Both the position numbers and the translations under genes were made by a program. From the IMG/VR virus record IMGVR_UViG_2740892235_000006: DNA of 8,446 nt; one strand, 5' to 3'. The stretch comes from a virus. Lineage: Duplodnaviria; Heunggongvirae; Uroviricota; Caudoviricetes. Below are positions 1,710-8,446 of this stretch, piece by piece; position 1 is the stretch's first letter; each line of letters begins with the position of its first letter. A model generated the notes under the pieces. That model had not been told where the DNA came from. It did no database searches and saw only the letters and a list, made by a program, of their open reading frames with translations.

Positions 1710-2180
1710 CGACCACCGCGATTGACATACATCGGCGTTTCGGTGGTGTCTTCTTCGGAAATTTTCCCGCGGTTAGTCGGGCGAACATATGAGAGTTTGT
1801 GTTTGATTTTCACACGGTTCTCATCAAATGGTTCGATTTCCAGGTTGAGTGAGACCTTACCTTTGGTTTTCGTGTTCATCACACCTGAAGCGACTTCACT
1901 GAGAACTGCGCCGATTTTGGTTTCAAATACGCCGCCGTCCAGCTCCCCGATAAATGCCTGCACATCNNNNNNNNNNGACATATGAGAGTTTGTGTTTGAT
2001 TTTCACACGGTTCTCATCAAACGGTTCGATTTCCAGATTGAGTGAGACCTTCCCTTTGGTTTTCGTGTTCATCACACCGGAAGCGACCTCACTGAGAACT
2101 GCGCCGATTTTGGTTTCAAATACGCCGCCGTCCAGCTCCCCGATAAATGCCTGCACATCAGTACTGCGTTCGCTAGCCAT
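1625..2180 (-). CDS. Phage hypothetical protein, about 120 aa once the duplicated tile is collapsed; interrupted by the N10 gap at 1967-1976
   Basis: ATG is the reverse complement of 2178-2180, with SD GAGGAG 7 nt upstream. Stop is the reverse complement of 1625-1627. Protein reads MASERSTDVQAFIGELDGGVFETKIGAVLSEVASGVMNTKTKGKVSLNLEIEPFDENRVKIKHKLSYVRPTNRGKISEEDTTETPMYVNRGGRLTILQEDQGQLLTLAGEPDGKLRAAGR. Segment 1978-2159 repeats 1785-1966, and a second allelic 3' end lies at 1512-1596. Confidence 0.75.
1785..2159. repeat. Two overlapping tiles (1785-1966, 1978-2159) around the N10 gap at 1967-1976
   Basis: Direct comparison; a handful of substitutions. Confidence 0.9.
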
Positions 2181-2228
2181 TTTGCTGCTCCTCATCATAT
2201 CGACCCTGCAAGGTCGGTTGGTTTCTCC

Positions 2229-2317
2229 ACAAAACAGAGAAGAACACCTGCGGTGGCAGCCGCCCGGATGGATTGGGTTATGAGCCCGTCGCCCGGTGAT
2301 GCTCTTCTCTGTTTTGT
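2229..2317. repeat. 16-bp inverted repeat (15 of 16 match), acaaaacagagaagaa at 2229-2244 and ctcttctctgttttgt at 2302-2317, with a 57-bp GC-rich spacer
   Basis: Seen directly; it abuts the terminator U-tract and lies in the 5' leader of the 120-aa gene. Confidence 0.6.
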
Positions 2318-2363
2318 AAAAAGAGCGGTACCAGCCGGAAGCAAGTGTACAAACTGGTACCGC
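2316..2363 (-). terminator. Candidate rho-independent terminator on the leftward transcript, upstream of the 120-aa gene
   Basis: Perfect 10-bp inverted repeat gcggtaccag (2325-2334) and ctggtaccgc (2354-2363) with a 19-nt loop. On the minus-strand RNA the 3' arm is followed directly by UCUUUUUAC (reverse complement of 2316-2324). Confidence 0.5.
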
Positions 2364-2786
2364 CAAAGCAGTGGCTGTTGTGGTGGGGTTGTCACTCAGG
2401 CGTATGGTCAACCTGACAATCCGGTGTCCTCAACGGGGAAAGAGTAACCCCGCCATACTTACCGCCGCGCCATTTCGCGGATTACCACAACGCTGAGAGC
2501 ACTTAGCCAGTTACGGCACCACACTTTGTCGTGGTTCCATAAATGCCCTCATCGTTGCACCCTGGTCTCTTCCCAGGTGTCAAACCGAACCGCCACGCTG
2601 GTTAGGCGTCTTATCAGCATCATCATTGACTTGCACATTCCGGCTACCTGGTTTGTTTGCCCGAGCAAGGAGTGGATTGTCCCCTTTAACGTCCCCAGAC
2701 CGCTAACGACGCATGTGCCATACGCCGTGTTACAACCAAATTTTGTTAGGACCTTGTTTGTTGGTCTGGAAAGAAAGATAAAATGA

Positions 2787-2834
2787 AATTGCGCATTATG
2801 CAAGTGTTTTGTTGCGAGATGCGCAATATGATGG
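2787..2834. promoter_or_regulatory. Candidate left operator region (OL-like)
   Basis: Shares motifs with the cI-cro intergenic region: TTGCGCA (2789-2795 versus 3616-3622) and the exact 9-mer CGCAATATG (2822-2830 versus 3653-3661). Contains the palindrome TTGCG-N5-CGCAA at 2812-2826. No clean -35/-10 pair could be resolved. Confidence 0.45.
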
Positions 2835-2840
2835 GTGATG

Positions 2841-2860
2841 AAAAGCCACCTTCTGGTGGC
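2841..2860 (-). terminator. Candidate intrinsic terminator just downstream of the repressor gene
   Basis: Stem gccacc (2845-2850) and ggtggc (2855-2860) with loop ttct. On the minus-strand RNA the stem is followed by UUUU (reverse complement of 2841-2844). It starts 22 nt past the repressor stop. Confidence 0.45.
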
Positions 2861-2881
2861 TAATTGATGAGGAGGTCGGGG

Positions 2882-3574
2882 TTAATTGTGTCGCTTAAGG
2901 GTTTGTGACTGACTGATTAAGACCTTCCCAAAGACCATAAACCGGTGTTCGTTTTCGCTGGTAATTCCCCATTCACGGTAAATCTGGTTATCAGAAATCA
3001 CCAGTAGTTTGTCAGGTATCATTTGCAGTCGTTTGACATAAATTTTATCATCAAAACCAAACACATAGATACCATCCCCATCAAACTGATTGATACTGAT
3101 ATCAACGAAGATGAGATCTCCTGGCTCAATGGTTGGACACATACTGTCCCCACGAACGTTGATAACTTTAATGTGATTGGCTGGTCGTCCTCCAAACATC
3201 GATACAGCATTATCAGTTATGTATTCAATGGCATGAATCACATCAATGACATCACCGCCCTGGATAAGGCCATTTCCCGCACTGGCACTGACATCCAGCA
3301 TTTCAATACGGAATACATCCTTCACCTGCGCAACATCCTCACCAGTACTGTTTTTACATACAGTATTACTTTTGAAGTCTGAGGTAAAGAGATCTGCAAT
3401 ATCAACACCTAAGCTCCTGGCAATATTACTCAGGGCTTGTTCAGTGAATTGTTTCTGCTTACCTGTTTCCAGGCGTGAGATATTCGCCGCATCCACTCCT
3501 ATTGCTTCAGCGAGATCGGCGATTTTCATGTTCTTCGCCTGGCGAAGTTGTCTGACTCGATTTCCTATGTTCAT
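2882..3574 (-). CDS. CI-type phage repressor, 230 aa: N-terminal XRE-family helix-turn-helix plus C-terminal S24 (LexA-like) autopeptidase
   Basis: N-terminus MNIGNRVRQLRQAKNMKIADLAEAIGVDAANISRLETGK is a typical HTH. C-terminal half carries the S24 signature GDSM (catalytic Ser) and a downstream YVKRL (Lys). It is divergent from the cro-like gene. No SD precedes the ATG. Confidence 0.9.
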   Translation of the reverse strand: MNIGNRVRQLRQAKNMKIADLAEAIGVDAANISRLETGKQKQFTEQALSNIARSLGVDIADLFTSDFKSNTVCKNSTGEDVAQVKDVFRIEMLDVSASAGNGLIQGGDVIDVIHAIEYITDNAVSMFGGRPANHIKVINVRGDSMCPTIEPGDLIFVDISINQFDGDGIYVFGFDDKIYVKRLQMIPDKLLVISDNQIYREWGITSENEHRFMVFGKVLISQSQTLKRHN

Positions 3575-3671
3575 GCGTTTATTACATTTCTTTATTGCGC
3601 GTTAAGCAAATCAACTTGCGCAAAATATTTGCGTGAAATAATATGCTTATCACGCAATATGTGGAGGTTAT
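3575..3671. promoter_or_regulatory. Divergent operator/promoter region (OR-like) with candidate pRM (leftward) and pR (rightward)
   Basis: Repeated TTGCG/CGCAA half-sites, including the palindrome TTGCGCAA at 3616-3623 and TTGCGTG-N15-CACGCAA at 3629-3657. Candidate pR: -35 TTGCGC 3616-3621, 17-bp spacer, -10 TAATAT 3639-3644, then SD GGAGG 3663-3667. Candidate pRM on the minus strand: -35 TTGCTT (rc of 3604-3609), 17-bp spacer, -10 TGTAAT (rc of 3581-3586), placing the start at the A of the repressor ATG. Confidence 0.55.
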
Positions 3672-3932
3672 ATGCAATCACCATTACGAAATGTGCGTAA
3701 GGCGCACGGATTTACTTTGCAGCATGTTGCTGCGGGTGTTCAGGTTAATCCAGCGACGCTGAGTCGTATTGAGAGACTGGAACAAATTCCATCTATCGAT
3801 CTGGCAGAGCGTCTGGCCAATTTTTTTAAGGGAGAAATCAGCGAAATGCAGATTCTCTATCCTGCTCGCTTTCAATCTAGTCAAAACCGGAATGAGTTAA
3901 AACCACAGGAAAAGGAGGTAAGCCGTGGGTAA
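3672..3932 (+). CDS. Cro-like XRE-family helix-turn-helix regulator, 86 aa
   Basis: First gene of the rightward operon, divergent from the repressor. HTH-like segment FTLQHVAAGVQVNPATLSRIERLE. SD GGAGG 4 nt upstream of the ATG. Its 3' end overlaps the next gene by 8 nt. Confidence 0.8.
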   Translation: MQSPLRNVRKAHGFTLQHVAAGVQVNPATLSRIERLEQIPSIDLAERLANFFKGEISEMQILYPARFQSSQNRNELKPQEKEVSRG

Positions 3933-4476
3933 GCATCACTGGAAAGTGGAAAAACAGCCTGAGTGGTACGTGAAAGCGGTCAGAAAAACTATCGCGGCGT
4001 TGCCGGGTGGTTACGCTGAAGCAGCTGAGTGGCTGGATGTAACAGAGAACGCTTTATTCAATCGCCTTCGTGCCGATGGCGATCAGATTTTCCCGCTGGG
4101 ATGGGCAATGATTTTACAGCGCGCGGCTGGCACTCACTACATTGCGGATGCTGTCGCACAGTCTGCTGATGGGGTGTTTGTATCGCTTCCTGACATTGAG
4201 GAAGTAGAGAACGCCGATATAAACCAGCGCCTGCTGGAAGTCATCGAACAGATCGGGAGTTACTCAAAGCAGATTCGTTCGGCAATCGAAGATGGGGTAG
4301 TGGAGCCACACGAGCAGACAGCAATGAATGATGAGTTGTATCTGTCAATTTCGAAGCTCCAGGAGCATGCGGCACTGGTCTACAAAATTTTCTGCGCTCC
4401 AGAAAAGAGTGACGCCCGCGAGTGTGCAGCTCCGGGCGTCGTGGCGTTTTGTGTCTGTGGAGAAACTAACGCATGA
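3925..4476 (+). CDS. CII-like phage regulatory protein (resembles the phage 186 CII / CP76 type), 183 aa, GTG start
   Basis: Strong SD AAGGAGG 6 nt upstream of GTG 3925. Position is immediately after cro. Segment ALFNRLRADGDQIFPLGWAMILQRAAGTHYIADAVAQ resembles the 186-CII-type family from memory. Confidence 0.65.
   Translation: MGKHHWKVEKQPEWYVKAVRKTIAALPGGYAEAAEWLDVTENALFNRLRADGDQIFPLGWAMILQRAAGTHYIADAVAQSADGVFVSLPDIEEVENADINQRLLEVIEQIGSYSKQIRSAIEDGVVEPHEQTAMNDELYLSISKLQEHAALVYKIFCAPEKSDARECAAPGVVAFCVCGETNA
4409..4457. terminator. GC-rich hairpin with pyrimidine/U-rich flanks on both strands inside the 3' end of the CII-like gene; candidate bidirectional terminator
   Basis: Stem gacgcccg (4411-4418) and cgggcgtc (4433-4440), extendable by 3 bp inside the loop. 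Minus-strand RNA continues ACUCUUUUCUG. Plus-strand RNA continues GGCGUUUUGUGUCU. Confidence 0.4.
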
Positions 4477-5636
4477 ACAGTTTAACGGCAAATAACCGTT
4501 TGTCGCAACAGCTGGTGGTCAGTGTCGCTGCACACCTGTTGTTACGGCATGAATGCAGATTACCAAATCACCTGGCTGTAAGTAACCACAGAGAACTTTA
4601 CCTGACTGTGGGGGGCGAGTTGTGCAGGAACTTAACCGCTGGTTTCGTGACGGAAGAGGACTTTATGTTCATGTTATTCGTTGGGAGCCAGAAACACAGC
4701 GCGTTATCTATCTTCGCAAAGACTACCCGCATGAGTGCTTTAGTCCTTTGTGGAAATTCAGGCGTGATTTTGTTGAGTGTGAAGGACCAGCAGCATATTG
4801 ATTCTGCAATTCCGGGACGTTACACTGTACCGGCACCTTATAAAGCGGGTGCCGGGATTGGCGTCCTGAAATTGATTACTGAGCATAACCGCGCTCATGC
4901 GGTTTTTTCGTGTCATGAGCATTGCTACGCCCAAATTATGGTGGGGCGTACAGGGCCGACTTCGGTCGGGCCGGGTTCGGTAGTCTCCGGTAACGCCAAC
5001 CCTGTACGTCTCACCACCTCTGTGATTGGCGTCCCATGTGGTGAGTTTTCTAAAAAACTGACTACCGGGGCTGTCACTATGACTACTCTCCCAACCCTCT
5101 CTCAACCTGAAATTGCCATCGTTGATGGTCAGGCTGTTACATCTTCTTTGGCTGTTGCTGACTTCTTCTCTAAACGTCATGACGATGTTCTGAAAAAGAT
5201 CCGCATTTTGGATTGTTCTCCAGAGTTTTGTGCCCGCAATTTTGCGGAGACATCAATTTTGGTACGCCAGCCCAACGGCGGTACTCGCAAACTTCCCTGC
5301 TATCAAATCACCCGCGACGGTTTTGCGTTTCTTGCCATGGGCTTCACTGGTAAACGTGCTGCCCGGTTCAAAGAGGCATACATCAACGCCTTTAACCTGA
5401 TGGAGAAACAGCTTTCAAAGCCCGCTGTACCGAGCGACGTTGCACATAACGCCAGCGTTCTCTGTTCCTACATTTCATCAATTCATCAGGTCTGGCTGCA
5501 GCAGCTTTATCCTATGTTGGCAAAAGCCGAATCTCCGCTGGCTGTTAGCTTATATGACTATATTAATGATGCTTCGGCGCTGGCCTGCCTCATAAATTTG
5601 TCGCTGAACCCTTCAGAGGCAAGGGGGCGCAAATGA
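4473..5636 (+). CDS. 387-aa ORF with a C-terminal Rha-family phage regulatory domain (residues about 203-387) and an N-terminal 200 aa of uncertain coding status
   Basis: ATG 4473 overlaps the CII-like stop (ATGA). The segment from M203 (ATG 5079), MTTLPTLSQPEIAIVDGQAVTSSLAVADFFSKRHDDVLKKIRIL...YQITRDGFAFLAMGFTGKRAARFKEAYINAFNLMEKQL, matches the Rha signature (FGKRHDNVLRDI-like, MGFTG). The upstream 600 nt is open in frame but rich in rare codons (tta, ggg, aga, agg). A G6 run at 4610-4615 connects to a second open frame. Confidence 0.6.
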   Translation: MNSLTANNRLSQQLVVSVAAHLLLRHECRLPNHLAVSNHRELYLTVGGELCRNLTAGFVTEEDFMFMLFVGSQKHSALSIFAKTTRMSALVLCGNSGVILLSVKDQQHIDSAIPGRYTVPAPYKAGAGIGVLKLITEHNRAHAVFSCHEHCYAQIMVGRTGPTSVGPGSVVSGNANPVRLTTSVIGVPCGEFSKKLTTGAVTMTTLPTLSQPEIAIVDGQAVTSSLAVADFFSKRHDDVLKKIRILDCSPEFCARNFAETSILVRQPNGGTRKLPCYQITRDGFAFLAMGFTGKRAARFKEAYINAFNLMEKQLSKPAVPSDVAHNASVLCSYISSIHQVWLQQLYPMLAKAESPLAVSLYDYINDASALACLINLSLNPSEARGRK

Positions 5637-5857
5637 TCCGGAATATTTTCAAACGTTTTACCAATCAGACTTTCCGTTGTCCTCGTCCGGGTCAGTGGTA
5701 CACCACGCCTGCAGGGCATGTTCTACGTGTTAGCCTGGTTGACCGTGAATGTCAGAAGGTGATTTGTGAACCGCTGGGCCGTAATTACCGCGTCAGTATG
5801 CCGCTTATAGCCTTTCGCTCCGGAAAAAACATGAAGCATCTCGGAGGTGCAGCATGA
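5633..5857 (+). CDS. Hypothetical small phage protein, 74 aa
   Basis: ATGA overlaps at both ends (with the Rha-domain ORF upstream and the replication gene downstream). G-rich SD-like stretch upstream. Protein MIRNIFKRFTNQTFRCPRPGQWYTTPAGHVLRVSLVDRECQKVICEPLGRNYRVSMPLIAFRSGKN; no family recognised. Confidence 0.5.
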   Translation: MIRNIFKRFTNQTFRCPRPGQWYTTPAGHVLRVSLVDRECQKVICEPLGRNYRVSMPLIAFRSGKNMKHLGGAA

Positions 5858-6672
5858 GTATGGAGCTGATGGTTAAAGCGATGAAAATTCGAGTGGGTAA
5901 TCCATTGCGAAAACTGGTTCTGATCAAGCTGGCTGATAATGCCAGCGATCAGGGTGAGTGCTGGCCCAGCTACCAGCATATTGCTGACCAGTGCGAGATT
6001 AGCAAACGTTCTGTGATGAATCATATTGCGGCCCTTTGTGAGTCCGGGCTGGTAAAAAAAGTCACCCGGAAAGGTGAAAAAGGTAACTCAAGTAATATCT
6101 ATCTCCTTCATCTTGATGGTGCAGGAGATTCACTAGGGGGTAGTGCAAATAATTCACTATCTGGTGCAGCAAATTCACCAGGTAGTGCAGGAGTTGCACC
6201 AGGGGGTAGTGCAGGAGATTCACCCAGAACCAGTCACTCTTTTGAACCAGTCAAAGAACCAGTCAATGAACCAATAGCTGTTGGTGCATCTGCTGATGAG
6301 TCTGTGCGAGTTCGTTCAAACCGACCGGAATACTCTCCGGAGTTTGAGCAGGCATGGCTGGCATATCCCAAACGTGCTGGTGGCAATTCAAAATCTGCAG
6401 CCTTCAAAGCCTGGAAAGCCCGTTTGAATGAGGGGGTAAACCCCGAAACCATGCTGGAAGGTGTGAAACGCTACGCGGGCTGGGTATCTGCGATGGGTAA
6501 CAGCGGCACACAATTTGTGAAACAGGCTGTCACGTTCTTTGGTCCGGATCGTCATTTCGAAGAATCCTGGGAAGTTCCTGCGGTATCTGTAGCCGGACGT
6601 GAGGACCCGTACTTCAAAGCCAGTTACGACAACGTGGACTACAGCCAGATCCCGGCAGGATTCAGGGGGTGA
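5854..6672 (+). CDS. Replication initiation protein (lambda O-like organiser): N-terminal winged-helix/HTH domain, central Gly/Ser/Ala-rich linker, C-terminal domain; 272 aa
   Basis: SD GGAGG 6 nt upstream. N-terminus MSMELMVKAMKIRVGNPLRKLVLIKLADNASDQGECWPSYQHIADQCEISKRSVMNHIAALCESGLVKK looks like the HTH of phage replication proteins. Position after cII and Rha is typical. The linker is encoded by direct repeats. Confidence 0.7.
   Translation: MSMELMVKAMKIRVGNPLRKLVLIKLADNASDQGECWPSYQHIADQCEISKRSVMNHIAALCESGLVKKVTRKGEKGNSSNIYLLHLDGAGDSLGGSANNSLSGAANSPGSAGVAPGGSAGDSPRTSHSFEPVKEPVNEPIAVGASADESVRVRSNRPEYSPEFEQAWLAYPKRAGGNSKSAAFKAWKARLNEGVNPETMLEGVKRYAGWVSAMGNSGTQFVKQAVTFFGPDRHFEESWEVPAVSVAGREDPYFKASYDNVDYSQIPAGFRG
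6118..6275. repeat. Iteron-like direct repeats inside the O-like gene, preceded by an AT-rich stretch (6081-6117); candidate replication origin
   Basis: Five imperfect 16-19-bp repeats with consensus GGT(AGT)GCAGGAGATTCAC starting at 6118, 6139, 6163, 6181 and 6205, then GAACCAGTCA three times (6228-6237, 6244-6253, 6257-6266) plus a partial fourth (gaaccaa, 6269-6275). Confidence 0.4.
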
Positions 6673-6674
6673 TC

Positions 6675-6767
6675 ATGAGTCTTTTGAATGAAGTTCAGAA
6701 ATTCATTGAAGCCCATCCGGGCTGTACTTCCGGAGACATTGCGGATGCTTTTTACGTGGGGGCTTAA
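6675..6767 (+). CDS. 30-aa ORF (MSLLNEVQKFIEAHPGCTSGDIADAFYVGA), possibly the remnant of a longer gene cut at a module junction
   Basis: Starts 2 nt after the O-like stop and its TAA overlaps the methyltransferase ATG. Its last 15 nt are shared with the different gene found upstream of the second methyltransferase copy. Confidence 0.3.
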   Translation: MSLLNEVQKFIEAHPGCTSGDIADAFYVGA

Positions 6768-8047
6768 TGAGTAATAAATATTGCCAGGCGCTGGTAGAAC
6801 TGCGGAACAAACCAGCCCATGAACTGAAGGAAGTGGGCGATCAGTGGCGCACGCCGGACAACATTTTCTGGGGAATTAACACCTTGTTTGGTCCGTTTGT
6901 TCTGGATCTGTTCACTGACGGTGATAACGCCAAATGTGCCGCGTATTACACGGCGGAAGACAACGCGCTGGCGCATGACTGGTCAGAACGTCTTGCGGAG
7001 CTTAAAGGTGCTGCCTTTGGTAATCCCCCATACAGCCGCGCCAGTCAGCATGAGGGGCAATACATCACCGGCATGCGTTACATCATGAAGCATGCCAGTG
7101 CCATGCGTGATAAAGGCGGGCGCTATGTTTTCCTGATTAAAGCTGCCACCAGCGAAGTGTGGTGGCCGGAAGATGCAGATCATATTGCTTTTATTCGCGG
7201 GCGTATTGGTTTTGAACTGCCTGTCTGGTTTATCCCGAAAGACGAGAAGCAGGTACCGACAGGCGCTTTCTTCGCTGGTGCTATTGCTGTTTTCGACAAG
7301 ACCTGGAAGGGACCGGCAATCAGCTACATCGGGCGCGATGAACTTGANNNNNNNNNNCAGAACGAAATAATTTTCTGGCGCGTCGTGAACGGTGTTTACG
7401 GAAAAGCAGCAAGCGGGCTGCATCAGGTGAAGAGTGGTATCTGTCAGGGAATTACGTGGGGGCTTAATGAGTAATAAATATTGCCAGGCGCTGGTGGAAC
7501 TACGGAACAAACCAGCCCATGAACTGAAGGAAGTGGGCGATCAGTGGCGCACGCCGGATAACATTTTCTGGGGAATTAACACCCTGTTTGGCCCGTTTGT
7601 TCTGGATCTGTTCACTGATGGTGATAACGCCAAATGTGCTGCGTATTACACGGCGGAAGACAACGCGCTGGCGCATGACTGGTCAGAACGTCTTGTGGAG
7701 CTTAAAGGTGCTGCCTTTGGTAATCCCCCATACAGCCGCGCCAGTCAGCATGAGGGGCAATACATCACTGGCATGCGTTACATCATGAAGCATGCCAGTG
7801 CCATGCGTGATAAGGGCGGGCGCTATGTTTTCCTGATCAAAGCTGCCACCAGCGAAGTGTGGTGGCCGGAAGATGCAGATCATATTGCTTTTATTCGCGG
7901 GCGTATTGGTTTTGAACTGCCTGCCTGGTTTATCCCGAAAGACGAGAAGCAGGTGCCGACAGGAGCGTTCTTCGCTGGTGCTATTGCTGTTTTCGACAAG
8001 ACCTGGAAGGGACCGGCAATCAGCTACATCGGGCGCGATGAACTTGA
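6752..8047. repeat. Two near-identical methyltransferase tiles (6752-7347 and 7452-8047) with different upstream contexts, separated by the N10 gap at 7348-7357
   Basis: Identity begins at the shared string ttacgtgggggcttaatgagtaataaata; sequence further upstream differs completely between the two copies. Confidence 0.85.
6767..7347 (+). CDS. Phage Dam-type N6-adenine DNA methyltransferase, copy 1, truncated at the N10 gap 7348-7357
   Basis: NPPY catalytic motif (GNPPYS) encoded at 7022-7033. Reads MSNKYCQALVELRNKPAHELKEVGDQWRTPDNIFWGINTLFGPFVLDLFTDGDNAKCAAYY. Typical nin-region position after the replication gene. Confidence 0.8.
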
Positions 8048-8120
8048 GGCATGTGGTGAGGCCTTTCTGGCGCAGGTTCGCCAGCAGGCGGAAAAACTGG
8101 TCAGGGAGATGGCGGCATGA
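7467..8120 (+). CDS. Phage Dam-type N6-adenine DNA methyltransferase, copy 2, complete at 217 aa
   Basis: Same protein as copy 1 with two amino-acid differences (A to V, V to A) and several synonymous changes. NPPY motif present. The track ORF 7434-8120 starts at an upstream in-frame ATG; the start at 7467 matches copy 1. Confidence 0.85.
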   Translation: MSNKYCQALVELRNKPAHELKEVGDQWRTPDNIFWGINTLFGPFVLDLFTDGDNAKCAAYYTAEDNALAHDWSERLVELKGAAFGNPPYSRASQHEGQYITGMRYIMKHASAMRDKGGRYVFLIKAATSEVWWPEDADHIAFIRGRIGFELPAWFIPKDEKQVPTGAFFAGAIAVFDKTWKGPAISYIGRDELEACGEAFLAQVRQQAEKLVREMAA

Positions 8121-8446
8121 CGACGTTAACTCAATGCCAGCAGCAGGTGCTGGATATGCTGATTTCTTACCAGCAAGAACGTGGCTTCCCGCCAACTAAT
8201 CAGGAGGTGGCAACCATGCTGGGATACCGTTCAGTGAATGCAGCGGTGGAGCATCTTCGCGCACTGGAGAAAAAAGGCGTCATCACGATAAANNNNNNNN
8301 NNTCAGAAAGAGCGTGGCTTTCCGCCAACCAATCAGGAGGTGGCAACCATGCTGGGATACCGTTCGGTGAATGCAGCGGTGGAGCATCTTCGCGCACTGG
8401 AGAAAAAAGGCGTCATCACGATAAAGCGTGGCGTGGCCCGGGGGAT
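8117..8446 (+). CDS. LexA N-terminal DNA-binding-domain-like (winged helix) protein, partial; runs off the window end and crosses the N10 gap at 8293-8302
   Basis: ATG 8117 overlaps the methyltransferase stop (ATGA). [59 protein letters not shown] aligns by eye to the LexA N-terminus ([58 protein letters not shown]). Segment 8303-8425 repeats 8170-8292 with substitutions and extends to ...KRGVARG. Confidence 0.65.

Follow-up and report, generated by a model that had tools for sequence, protein, structure and literature searches.

In the cryptic prophage CPS-53 of Escherichia coli K-12, a replication initiator gene (yfdO), a gene of the PerC family (yfdN) and a gene for a Dam-family methyltransferase (yfdM) follow one another in this order, without any P-like or DnaC-like gene. 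The same arrangement of initiator, yfdN and dam, again without a P or DnaC gene, is found in the isolated phages SfV, mEp460 and 1720a-02 and in the records of Stx2a and Stx2c phages. Among these genes, yfdN is known as the K-12 homologue of perC and was deleted there in order to assay the Pch activators of ler (PMC5931665), and nothing is known about the replication proteins of the Eru (non-lambda Stx-phage) modules (PMC8951638). The present analysis deals with the initiator-yfdN-dam module in a stretch of 8,446 nucleotides (nt) assigned to a virus of the Caudoviricetes (IMG/VR record IMGVR_UViG_2740892235_000006), hereafter the window, in which two methyltransferase genes stand one behind the other. 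A first-pass annotation, made from the letters of the sequence, had taken these genes for two copies in one molecule, set in unrelated upstream contexts that share only a 15-nt junction regarded as a mosaic module boundary, and had read a 30-amino-acid (aa) open reading frame (ORF) ahead of the first copy as what is left of a helicase-loader gene, in a possibly replication-defective prophage.

The feature is in fact a known gene, yfdN, whose deletion allele already stands in public annotations, beside a scaffolding artefact. Very probably, the whole locus is explained by the artefactual joining of contigs from two prophages, by an in-frame deletion of 396 bp within yfdN in one of them, and by no loss of a helicase loader at all.

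The yfdN remnant and the contigs of two prophages

The 30-aa ORF reported ahead of methyltransferase copy 1 is present. Read from an ATG at 6675 (or, with 32 aa, from a GTG at 6669), it ends with ...DIADAFYVGA, and its stop codon (TAA, 6765-6767) overlaps the ATG of the methyltransferase gene (6767-6769). Ahead of copy 2, the frame read from 7360 gives ERNNFLARRERCLRKSSKRAASGEEWYLSGNYVGA, with the C-terminal end ...RRERCLRKSSKRAASGEEWYLSGNYVGA, and its stop codon (7465-7467) overlaps the methyltransferase ATG at 7467. It had also been noted correctly that both ORFs end in YVGA-stop on the same nucleotides, TACGTGGGGGCTTAA, which are common to the two methyltransferase starts; 5' of TACGTGGGGGCTTAA the two stretches of the window do not align with each other. 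The two ORFs are nonetheless far from unrelated. As the first-pass annotation had suggested, homologous genomes were aligned across the junction and the identity of both upstream peptides was searched for, and each peptide proved to belong to yfdN, the former to its start and its last four codons, the latter to its C-terminus.

Intact yfdN measures 495 bp and codes for a 164-aa protein of the PerC family, winged-helix-like in its N-terminal part and carrying the PerC domain at the C-terminus. The window was aligned at base level to the intact gene from three sources, i.e., O157:H7 PV15-279 (locus L003), strain 10 (locus L002) and phage SfV (orf40). In this alignment, the ORF ahead of copy 1 is made up of yfdN codons 1-28 and, in the same frame, of the four final codons with the stop codon, and exactly 396 bp are absent between ...GATGCTTTT and TACGTGG.... 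Both ends of the remnant are colinear with the intact gene, a single residue differs from L002 and L003 (E8 for D8) and none from SfV, and the remnant is flanked by the initiator gene and dam, just as yfdN is in K-12 CPS-53. Likewise, the copy-1 query matches some genomes in two pieces that span 1890 bp, vs. 1494, and the extra stretch is annotated there as yfdN, "PerC family transcriptional regulator." The frame ahead of copy 2 is the normal 3' end of an intact yfdN, cut off by the start of a contig. Both upstream ORFs are therefore parts of one and the same gene, and the shared 15 nt are the yfdN 3' end spared by the deletion, as seen from the intact 3' end ahead of copy 2. Thus the earlier view of the 30-aa ORF as a deletion remnant holds good, with a loss of 396 bp, and that of a former helicase loader does not, the gene being yfdN, for a putative transcriptional regulator of the PerC family.

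In intact YfdN (L003), the PerC domain (PF06069) lies at residues 100-151 (E 2.2e-9), wholly within the deleted 396 bp, and the 30-aa remnant has no match in Pfam. In RefSeq, the remnant is given as a pseudogene, 'incomplete; missing C-terminus', in all four of the carrier genomes inspected. The internal deletion in the Stx2a-type prophage of copy 1 has removed the whole PerC domain, and the overlapping stop and start signals are kept at both ends (TGA/GTG-ATG at 6669-6675 and TAATG at 6765-6769). Because these overlaps are kept and the deletion is in frame, the translation of dam need not be disturbed. The loss of a PerC-type regulator is the likely consequence of the deletion, to judge by the domain that is missing. 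A dam promoter annotated in SfV within the 3' end of orf40 would go with the deletion, its hexamers (TTGCGC / TACGGA) being a weak guess; a promoter scan gave nothing above the shuffled expectation and no support for this promoter. The deletion allele could serve as a natural knock-out for the role of phage-borne PerC homologues in Stx and Cdt phages.

The distribution of the allele was established among 5426 complete E. coli genomes with a 56-mer spanning the junction (6725-6780), for which an uninterrupted match was required. This 56-mer is present at 122 places, spread over 116 of the genomes, and the carriers include O157:H7, O111:H8, avian, porcine, urinary and seawater isolates. The intact 396-bp interior occurs at 3227 places in 2583 genomes, which makes the deletion a minor allele at ~3.6% of the loci (122 vs. 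3227 places). In the phage collection, phage cdtI is the sole carrier of the junction at E <= 1e-12, a threshold used because the count at the default E-value mixed in intact genes as two joined 28-nt pieces. The junction stands behind an HTH_36 initiator of 272-276 aa in the window, strain 10 and O157 NE122 (294 aa in the variant of cdtI), and also behind a 330-aa initiator with a preceding DUF4222 gene in avian pathogenic E. coli (APEC) BEN5202 and uropathogenic E. coli (UPEC) MS6198; the two backgrounds differ in their repressors and Q genes as well. As the ends of the deletion have only a single T of microhomology, yet the identical junction is found behind two initiator types, the deletion most likely arose once and then spread by phage transfer and recombination. 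Replication slippage between repeats, considered as a cause of recurrent deletion, was rejected on account of this single-T microhomology.

The second component of the locus is the structure of the window itself. It is split into nine pieces by eight runs of exactly 10 N, and every piece after the first opens, at its base 1 or 2, with a repeat of some part of the preceding piece (95.9-100% identity). One of these runs, overlooked when the two methyltransferase genes were read as parts of one molecule, stands between them, and the ORF ahead of copy 2 starts right at it. The pieces were compared with complete E. coli genomes, the reference being the closed genome of strain 10 (CP146507), in which two prophages 3.2 Mb apart contain the loci L001 (at 3.50 Mb) and L002 (at 0.298 Mb). 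Piece 1977-7347 is 99.9% identical to L001; piece 7358-8292 is 99.9% identical to L002 and only 97.5% to L001; and piece 8303-8446 matches L001 at 100% and L002 at 96.5%. From one of these pieces to the next, the window thus changes between the two prophages. Copy 1, which belongs to the L001-like prophage of Stx2a type, breaks off at a contig end after 581 nt out of 654. Both methyltransferases score 153-156 bits against Pfam Dam PF05869 (cut-off 28.1), copy 2 scores 255.5 bits against TIGR01712 phage_N6A_met (cut-off 97.05), and the two align over 596 nt at 97.5% identity. Strain 10, whose genome is closed, has both methyltransferase genes in full length, each with the LexA-family gene immediately behind it and without a second copy. 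The LexA-family gene shows the same pattern in the window, where one 5' part (8117-8292) comes from the second prophage and the other (8303-8446) from the first, with a further 10-N spacer (8293-8302) in between. Copies 1 and 2 are the same locus of two different prophages and no tandem pair: they are not contiguous on one sequenced molecule, a 10-N spacer dividing them here and 3.2 Mb in strain 10.

On this reading, the window comes from a draft assembly that strung together short contigs of two or three close lambdoid prophages from a single E. coli genome, with 10-N spacers in between. Stretches of 95 bp and 106 bp that are identical in both prophages, where a short-read assembler loses its path, contain or adjoin the contig breaks.

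The remainder of the window is built in a similar way. Seven of the nine pieces (1-1976 and the start of 1977-7347) overlap one another as variants, with 96.7-100% identity, of one set of minus-strand genes from the yfdQ/yfdP side. One stretch is present in at least three versions (1-623, 634-780 and 791-1189), which is consistent with three related prophages in the source genome; strain 10 likewise contains three places that match.

Table 1. Features of the window discussed in the text, with positions counted from its first base unless another locus is named.
Feature	Position	Strand	Basis
Replication initiator gene, O-like, 272 aa	5854-6672	+	Pfam HTH_36, PHROG 270
Iteron-like direct repeats inside the initiator gene, candidate origin	6119-6223	.	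Three 39-nt units, spacing 24 and 42 nt
True mosaic boundary and conserved initiator 3' end, tail REDPYFKASYDNVDYSQIPAGFRG	6597-6672	+	Homology to L002, L008 and L009 starts at 6597
Shared initiator tail	Window 6597-6672; L002 3544-3619; L008 and L009 5873-5948		
yfdN deletion remnant (pseudogene)	6669-6767	+	Alignment to intact 495-bp yfdN of L003, L002 and SfV orf40
Deletion junction between 6752 and 6753, one-T ambiguity	6751-6754	.	Alignment, ...GATGCTTTT joined to TACGTGGGGGCTTAA
Phage N6-adenine methyltransferase gene (Dam family), copy 1	6767-7347	+	Pfam Dam PF05869, E 7e-45
Scaffold spacer, 10 N, between two contigs	7348-7357	.	One of eight identical 10-N runs
Normal 3' end of intact yfdN (last 35 codons and stop), second prophage	7358-7467	+	Alignment to L002 yfdN over the whole length
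Dam-family methyltransferase gene, complete, 217 aa, second prophage	7467-8120	+	Pfam Dam E 1e-45; NCBIfam TIGR01712
LexA-family regulator gene, 5' part, present twice	8117-8446	+	Pfam LexA_DNA_bind

The initiator, the helicase loader and other readings of the locus

The observation that no P-like or DnaC-like ORF lies between the O-like initiator gene and copy 1 was accurate. Moreover, no lambda P or DnaC/IstB domain was found by Pfam, PHROG or NCBIfam in the ORFs tested between 3925 and 8290 or in intact YfdN, which matches PerC and the PHROG 'transcriptional activator' families instead, and no P-like or DnaC-like gene is annotated in the related loci L001-L009. The explanation offered for this absence, a deletion, falls with the relatives in which yfdN is intact (SfV, mEp460 and CPS-53), as they are equally devoid of a P or DnaC gene. 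On the strength of these gene orders, the absence of a loader gene is a standard trait of the initiator-yfdN-dam module and no result of the yfdN deletion. Presumably, the single initiator recruits the DnaB/DnaC machinery of the host; the host loading that had been proposed as a fallback is a reasonable inference for the whole initiator family. How this widespread loader-less module starts replication is a question separate from that of the 15-nt junction.

The initiator begins with a winged helix, continues with a disordered linker and a small helical domain on its C-terminal side, and closes with a conserved tail. It matches Pfam HTH_36 (residues 17-67, E 1.8e-11), with a weak match to DnaD_N, and PHROG 270 'replication initiation protein' (E 3e-88). 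Residues 147-245 match PHROG 1701 'DnaD-like helicase loader' (E 4e-32), and the C-terminal part also matches PHROGs named "replication protein" and "primosomal protein," all these names standing at the level of annotation only. There is no match to Phage_rep_O in Pfam at E <= 0.01, the O-like character being given by PHROG 'replication initiation protein / O-like' families only, and no match in NCBIfam; the C-terminal domains of two initiator types give nothing meaningful in Pfam at E <= 10. An AlphaFold2 model built on a 25-sequence alignment has a mean predicted local distance difference test score (pLDDT) of 59 and is confident for residues 1-90 (the winged helix) only. A Foldseek search of this model against the PDB returned generic winged-helix proteins, including DnaD-N and plasmid initiators, and none at E <= 0.001, and a search of the sequence against solved structures gave a spurious low-complexity match only. 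The iteron-like repeats within the gene encode the disordered Gly/Ser/Ala-rich linker (pLDDT 30-40), and their copy number varies, with 66 bp more in phage cdtI (294-aa protein) and homologues that range from 242 to 302 aa. An N-terminal DNA-binding domain together with iteron-like repeats within the gene is a trait of lambda O-type initiators, and the repeats may, by analogy with the lambda origin inside gene O, form the origin of replication.

Several homologues of the initiator (5854-6669) are fusions of HTH_36 with PerC, Dam or RusA domains (P0026, P0039 and P0047-P0050), so that the interval from the initiator gene to rusA is subject to other deletions or frameshifts in prophages, too.

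It is very unlikely that the deletion took a helicase loader or another essential replication function and left a replication-defective (cryptic) prophage behind. The idea draws on the place of yfdN, which is that of lambda P, directly after the initiator gene, on a conserved C-terminal tail that different initiators share beside yfdN and that recalls the O-P interaction, and on the fact that the function of phage YfdN is assigned from sequence alone; the strain-10 prophage also has a few pseudogenes and no integrase annotated next to a truncated dusA. However, YfdN matches a PerC transcriptional-activator domain and neither lambda P nor DnaC/IstB, and phage cdtI, which carries the identical yfdN deletion, was published as "an inducible lambdoid prophage," in the words of the title. 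The carrier prophage of strain 10, for its part, looks complete, with stx2a, lysis, terminase, portal, capsid and tail genes, and the allele has reached at least two backgrounds of initiator type and 116 genomes of diverse lineages, which is hard to reconcile with an immobile element. A replication defect of the yfdN-deleted prophage is thus not supported, since cdtI carries the deletion, the carrier prophage looks complete and the allele has moved between phage backgrounds.

The deletion-carrying prophage of strain 10 (L006, CP146507 3484000-3533000) is Stx2a-converting and lies beside a truncated tRNA-dihydrouridine synthase (dusA-like) gene, at which end no integrase is annotated. Its DUF2190 gene is duplicated or partial, and one gene of its lysis region is frameshifted.

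The possibility that the ORF of 30 or 32 aa is a functional small protein, such as a miniature winged-helix fragment or a peptide for coupling that selection maintains, meets with strong doubt. The reading frame survives the deletion, as do the start, the stop and the two overlapping junctions, and the allele is conserved in the 116 genomes that carry it. On the other hand, an in-frame outcome has a one-in-three chance, and the product is merely the first 28 residues of a 164-aa protein followed by its four terminal residues, without a family match, present at ~3.6% of the loci and a pseudogene in RefSeq wherever it was inspected. The first-pass annotation had itself considered that the ORF might be a genuine conserved small protein; it is instead the pseudogene remnant of yfdN.

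Scarcely credible is a true tandem pair of methyltransferase genes with unrelated upstream modules that met at a 15-nt boundary of mosaic recombination. In its favour, lambdoid phages are mosaics that exchange this region among themselves, and within the window the upstream stretches do not align beyond ~16 nt. Yet the copies are divided by the 10-N spacer at which copy 1 is cut, the pieces match, at 99.9% identity each, two places of a closed genome that lie 3.2 Mb from each other, and both upstream stretches align to one intact gene, so that the sequence ahead of the 15-nt junction belongs to yfdN in either case. A mosaic boundary does exist, but elsewhere: from 6597 onward, 76 nt ahead of the initiator stop codon, the window has DNA homology to other module types, and the otherwise different initiators (272, 313 and 330 aa) share with the window protein only the last ~24 residues, REDPYFK[A/S]SYDNVDYSQIPAGFRG. 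Judged from these alignments, it is near 6597, within the initiator gene, and not at the 15-nt junction, that homology between the module types truly breaks off. More generally, caution is called for with 10-N runs in draft assemblies, which place contigs of paralogous prophages together and can mimic duplications and mosaic junctions.

The shared tail itself could conceivably dock the host DnaB-DnaC complex or YfdN in a single-protein replication module, a proposal to which we give a modest chance; it may equally be mere sequence where recombination joins modules. Were the tail to dock in this way, the yfdN-deleted Stx2a and Cdt-I phages would be ready-made mutants showing YfdN to be dispensable for replication.

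An assembly error of the draft genome as the source of the 396-bp gap in copy 1 can be dismissed: the assembly is fragmented and built from paralogous repeats, but the identical junction occurs in 116 complete genomes and in the separately sequenced record of phage cdtI, and it lies 595 nt from the nearest contig end.

The preferred explanation, i.e., a scaffold of two prophages with a yfdN deletion in one of them and no loader lost, has points to set against it. The C-terminal half of the initiator is modelled at low confidence (pLDDT mostly below 70), and the recruitment of the host DnaB/DnaC machinery is presumed; the inducibility of phage cdtI is taken from the title of its description; and the reference-ordered nature of the scaffold is inferred from the structure of the window alone. 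In addition, piece 7358-8292 differs from L002 at one base, 8063, which is exactly a site of difference between L001 and L002, placed between two stretches identical in both, so that the source genome is not identical to strain 10 or the contig is slightly chimeric. The difference at this position would be compatible with gene conversion between the prophages as well as with such a chimera.

Other features of the window

Upstream of the initiator gene, Rfam identifies isrK at 4833-4909 (+; 59 bits vs. a gathering score of 50) and the C4 antisense RNA at 4934-5021 (+; 82 bits vs. 45), together with a weak match to the c4 a1/b1 target. These matches (4820-5021) fall within the 5' third of a 387-aa 'Rha family' ORF (4473-5636), in which the Ash and Rha domains are not reached before residue 117. 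Its 5' end has probably been called too far upstream, and the locus at 4820-5021 looks, from its RNA matches, like an anti-repressor cassette of the P1/P7-type c4-ant (IsrK-like) kind. The 700-bp stretch at 2181-2881, between yfdP and the cI-like repressor gene, has no gene annotated in the closed genome and no match in Rfam.

Comparison with known systems

The early region of the window resembles those of Stx phages of the Eru6, Eru7 and Eru9 types (PMC8951638) in having a gene with Rha and Ash domains near cI in an Stx2a prophage without lambda O and P. Eru typing in that study relies on the two genes next to cI only. The first Eru paper (PMC8044961) makes no mention of PerC, methyltransferase or HTH proteins. 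With the O/P module of lambda, the module shares its position downstream of cro and cII and, in the initiator, a DNA-binding N-terminus and repeats inside its own gene. Unlike the lambda module, it has no Phage_rep_O match and no P homologue in any relative, and the position of P is taken by the gene for a PerC-family regulator.

Close to copy 1 is phage cdtI (AB285204 / NC_009514), a Cdt-I-converting lambdoid prophage that agrees with it in the 396-bp deletion junction, in the type of initiator and in the dam gene, and that is 98.4% identical to the window over 6119-7347. It differs by one single-nucleotide polymorphism after the junction (YVGD-stop vs. YVGA-stop in the window), by an extra 66-bp repeat block in the initiator gene, by its cargo (cdt vs. 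stx2a) and by another repressor.

The reference points for the gene itself are yfdN (b2357) of K-12 CPS-53 and orf40 of Shigella phage SfV (PF06069), i.e., the gene from which codons 1-28 and the last four codons of the remnant derive. Both occupy the same place between the initiator (yfdO or orf39) and dam (yfdM or dam), with the same stop/start overlaps. In contrast to b2357 and orf40, the yfdN allele ahead of copy 1 is a pseudogene without the 396 bp that include the entire PerC domain, and the one ahead of copy 2 is an ordinary intact allele cut by a contig end.

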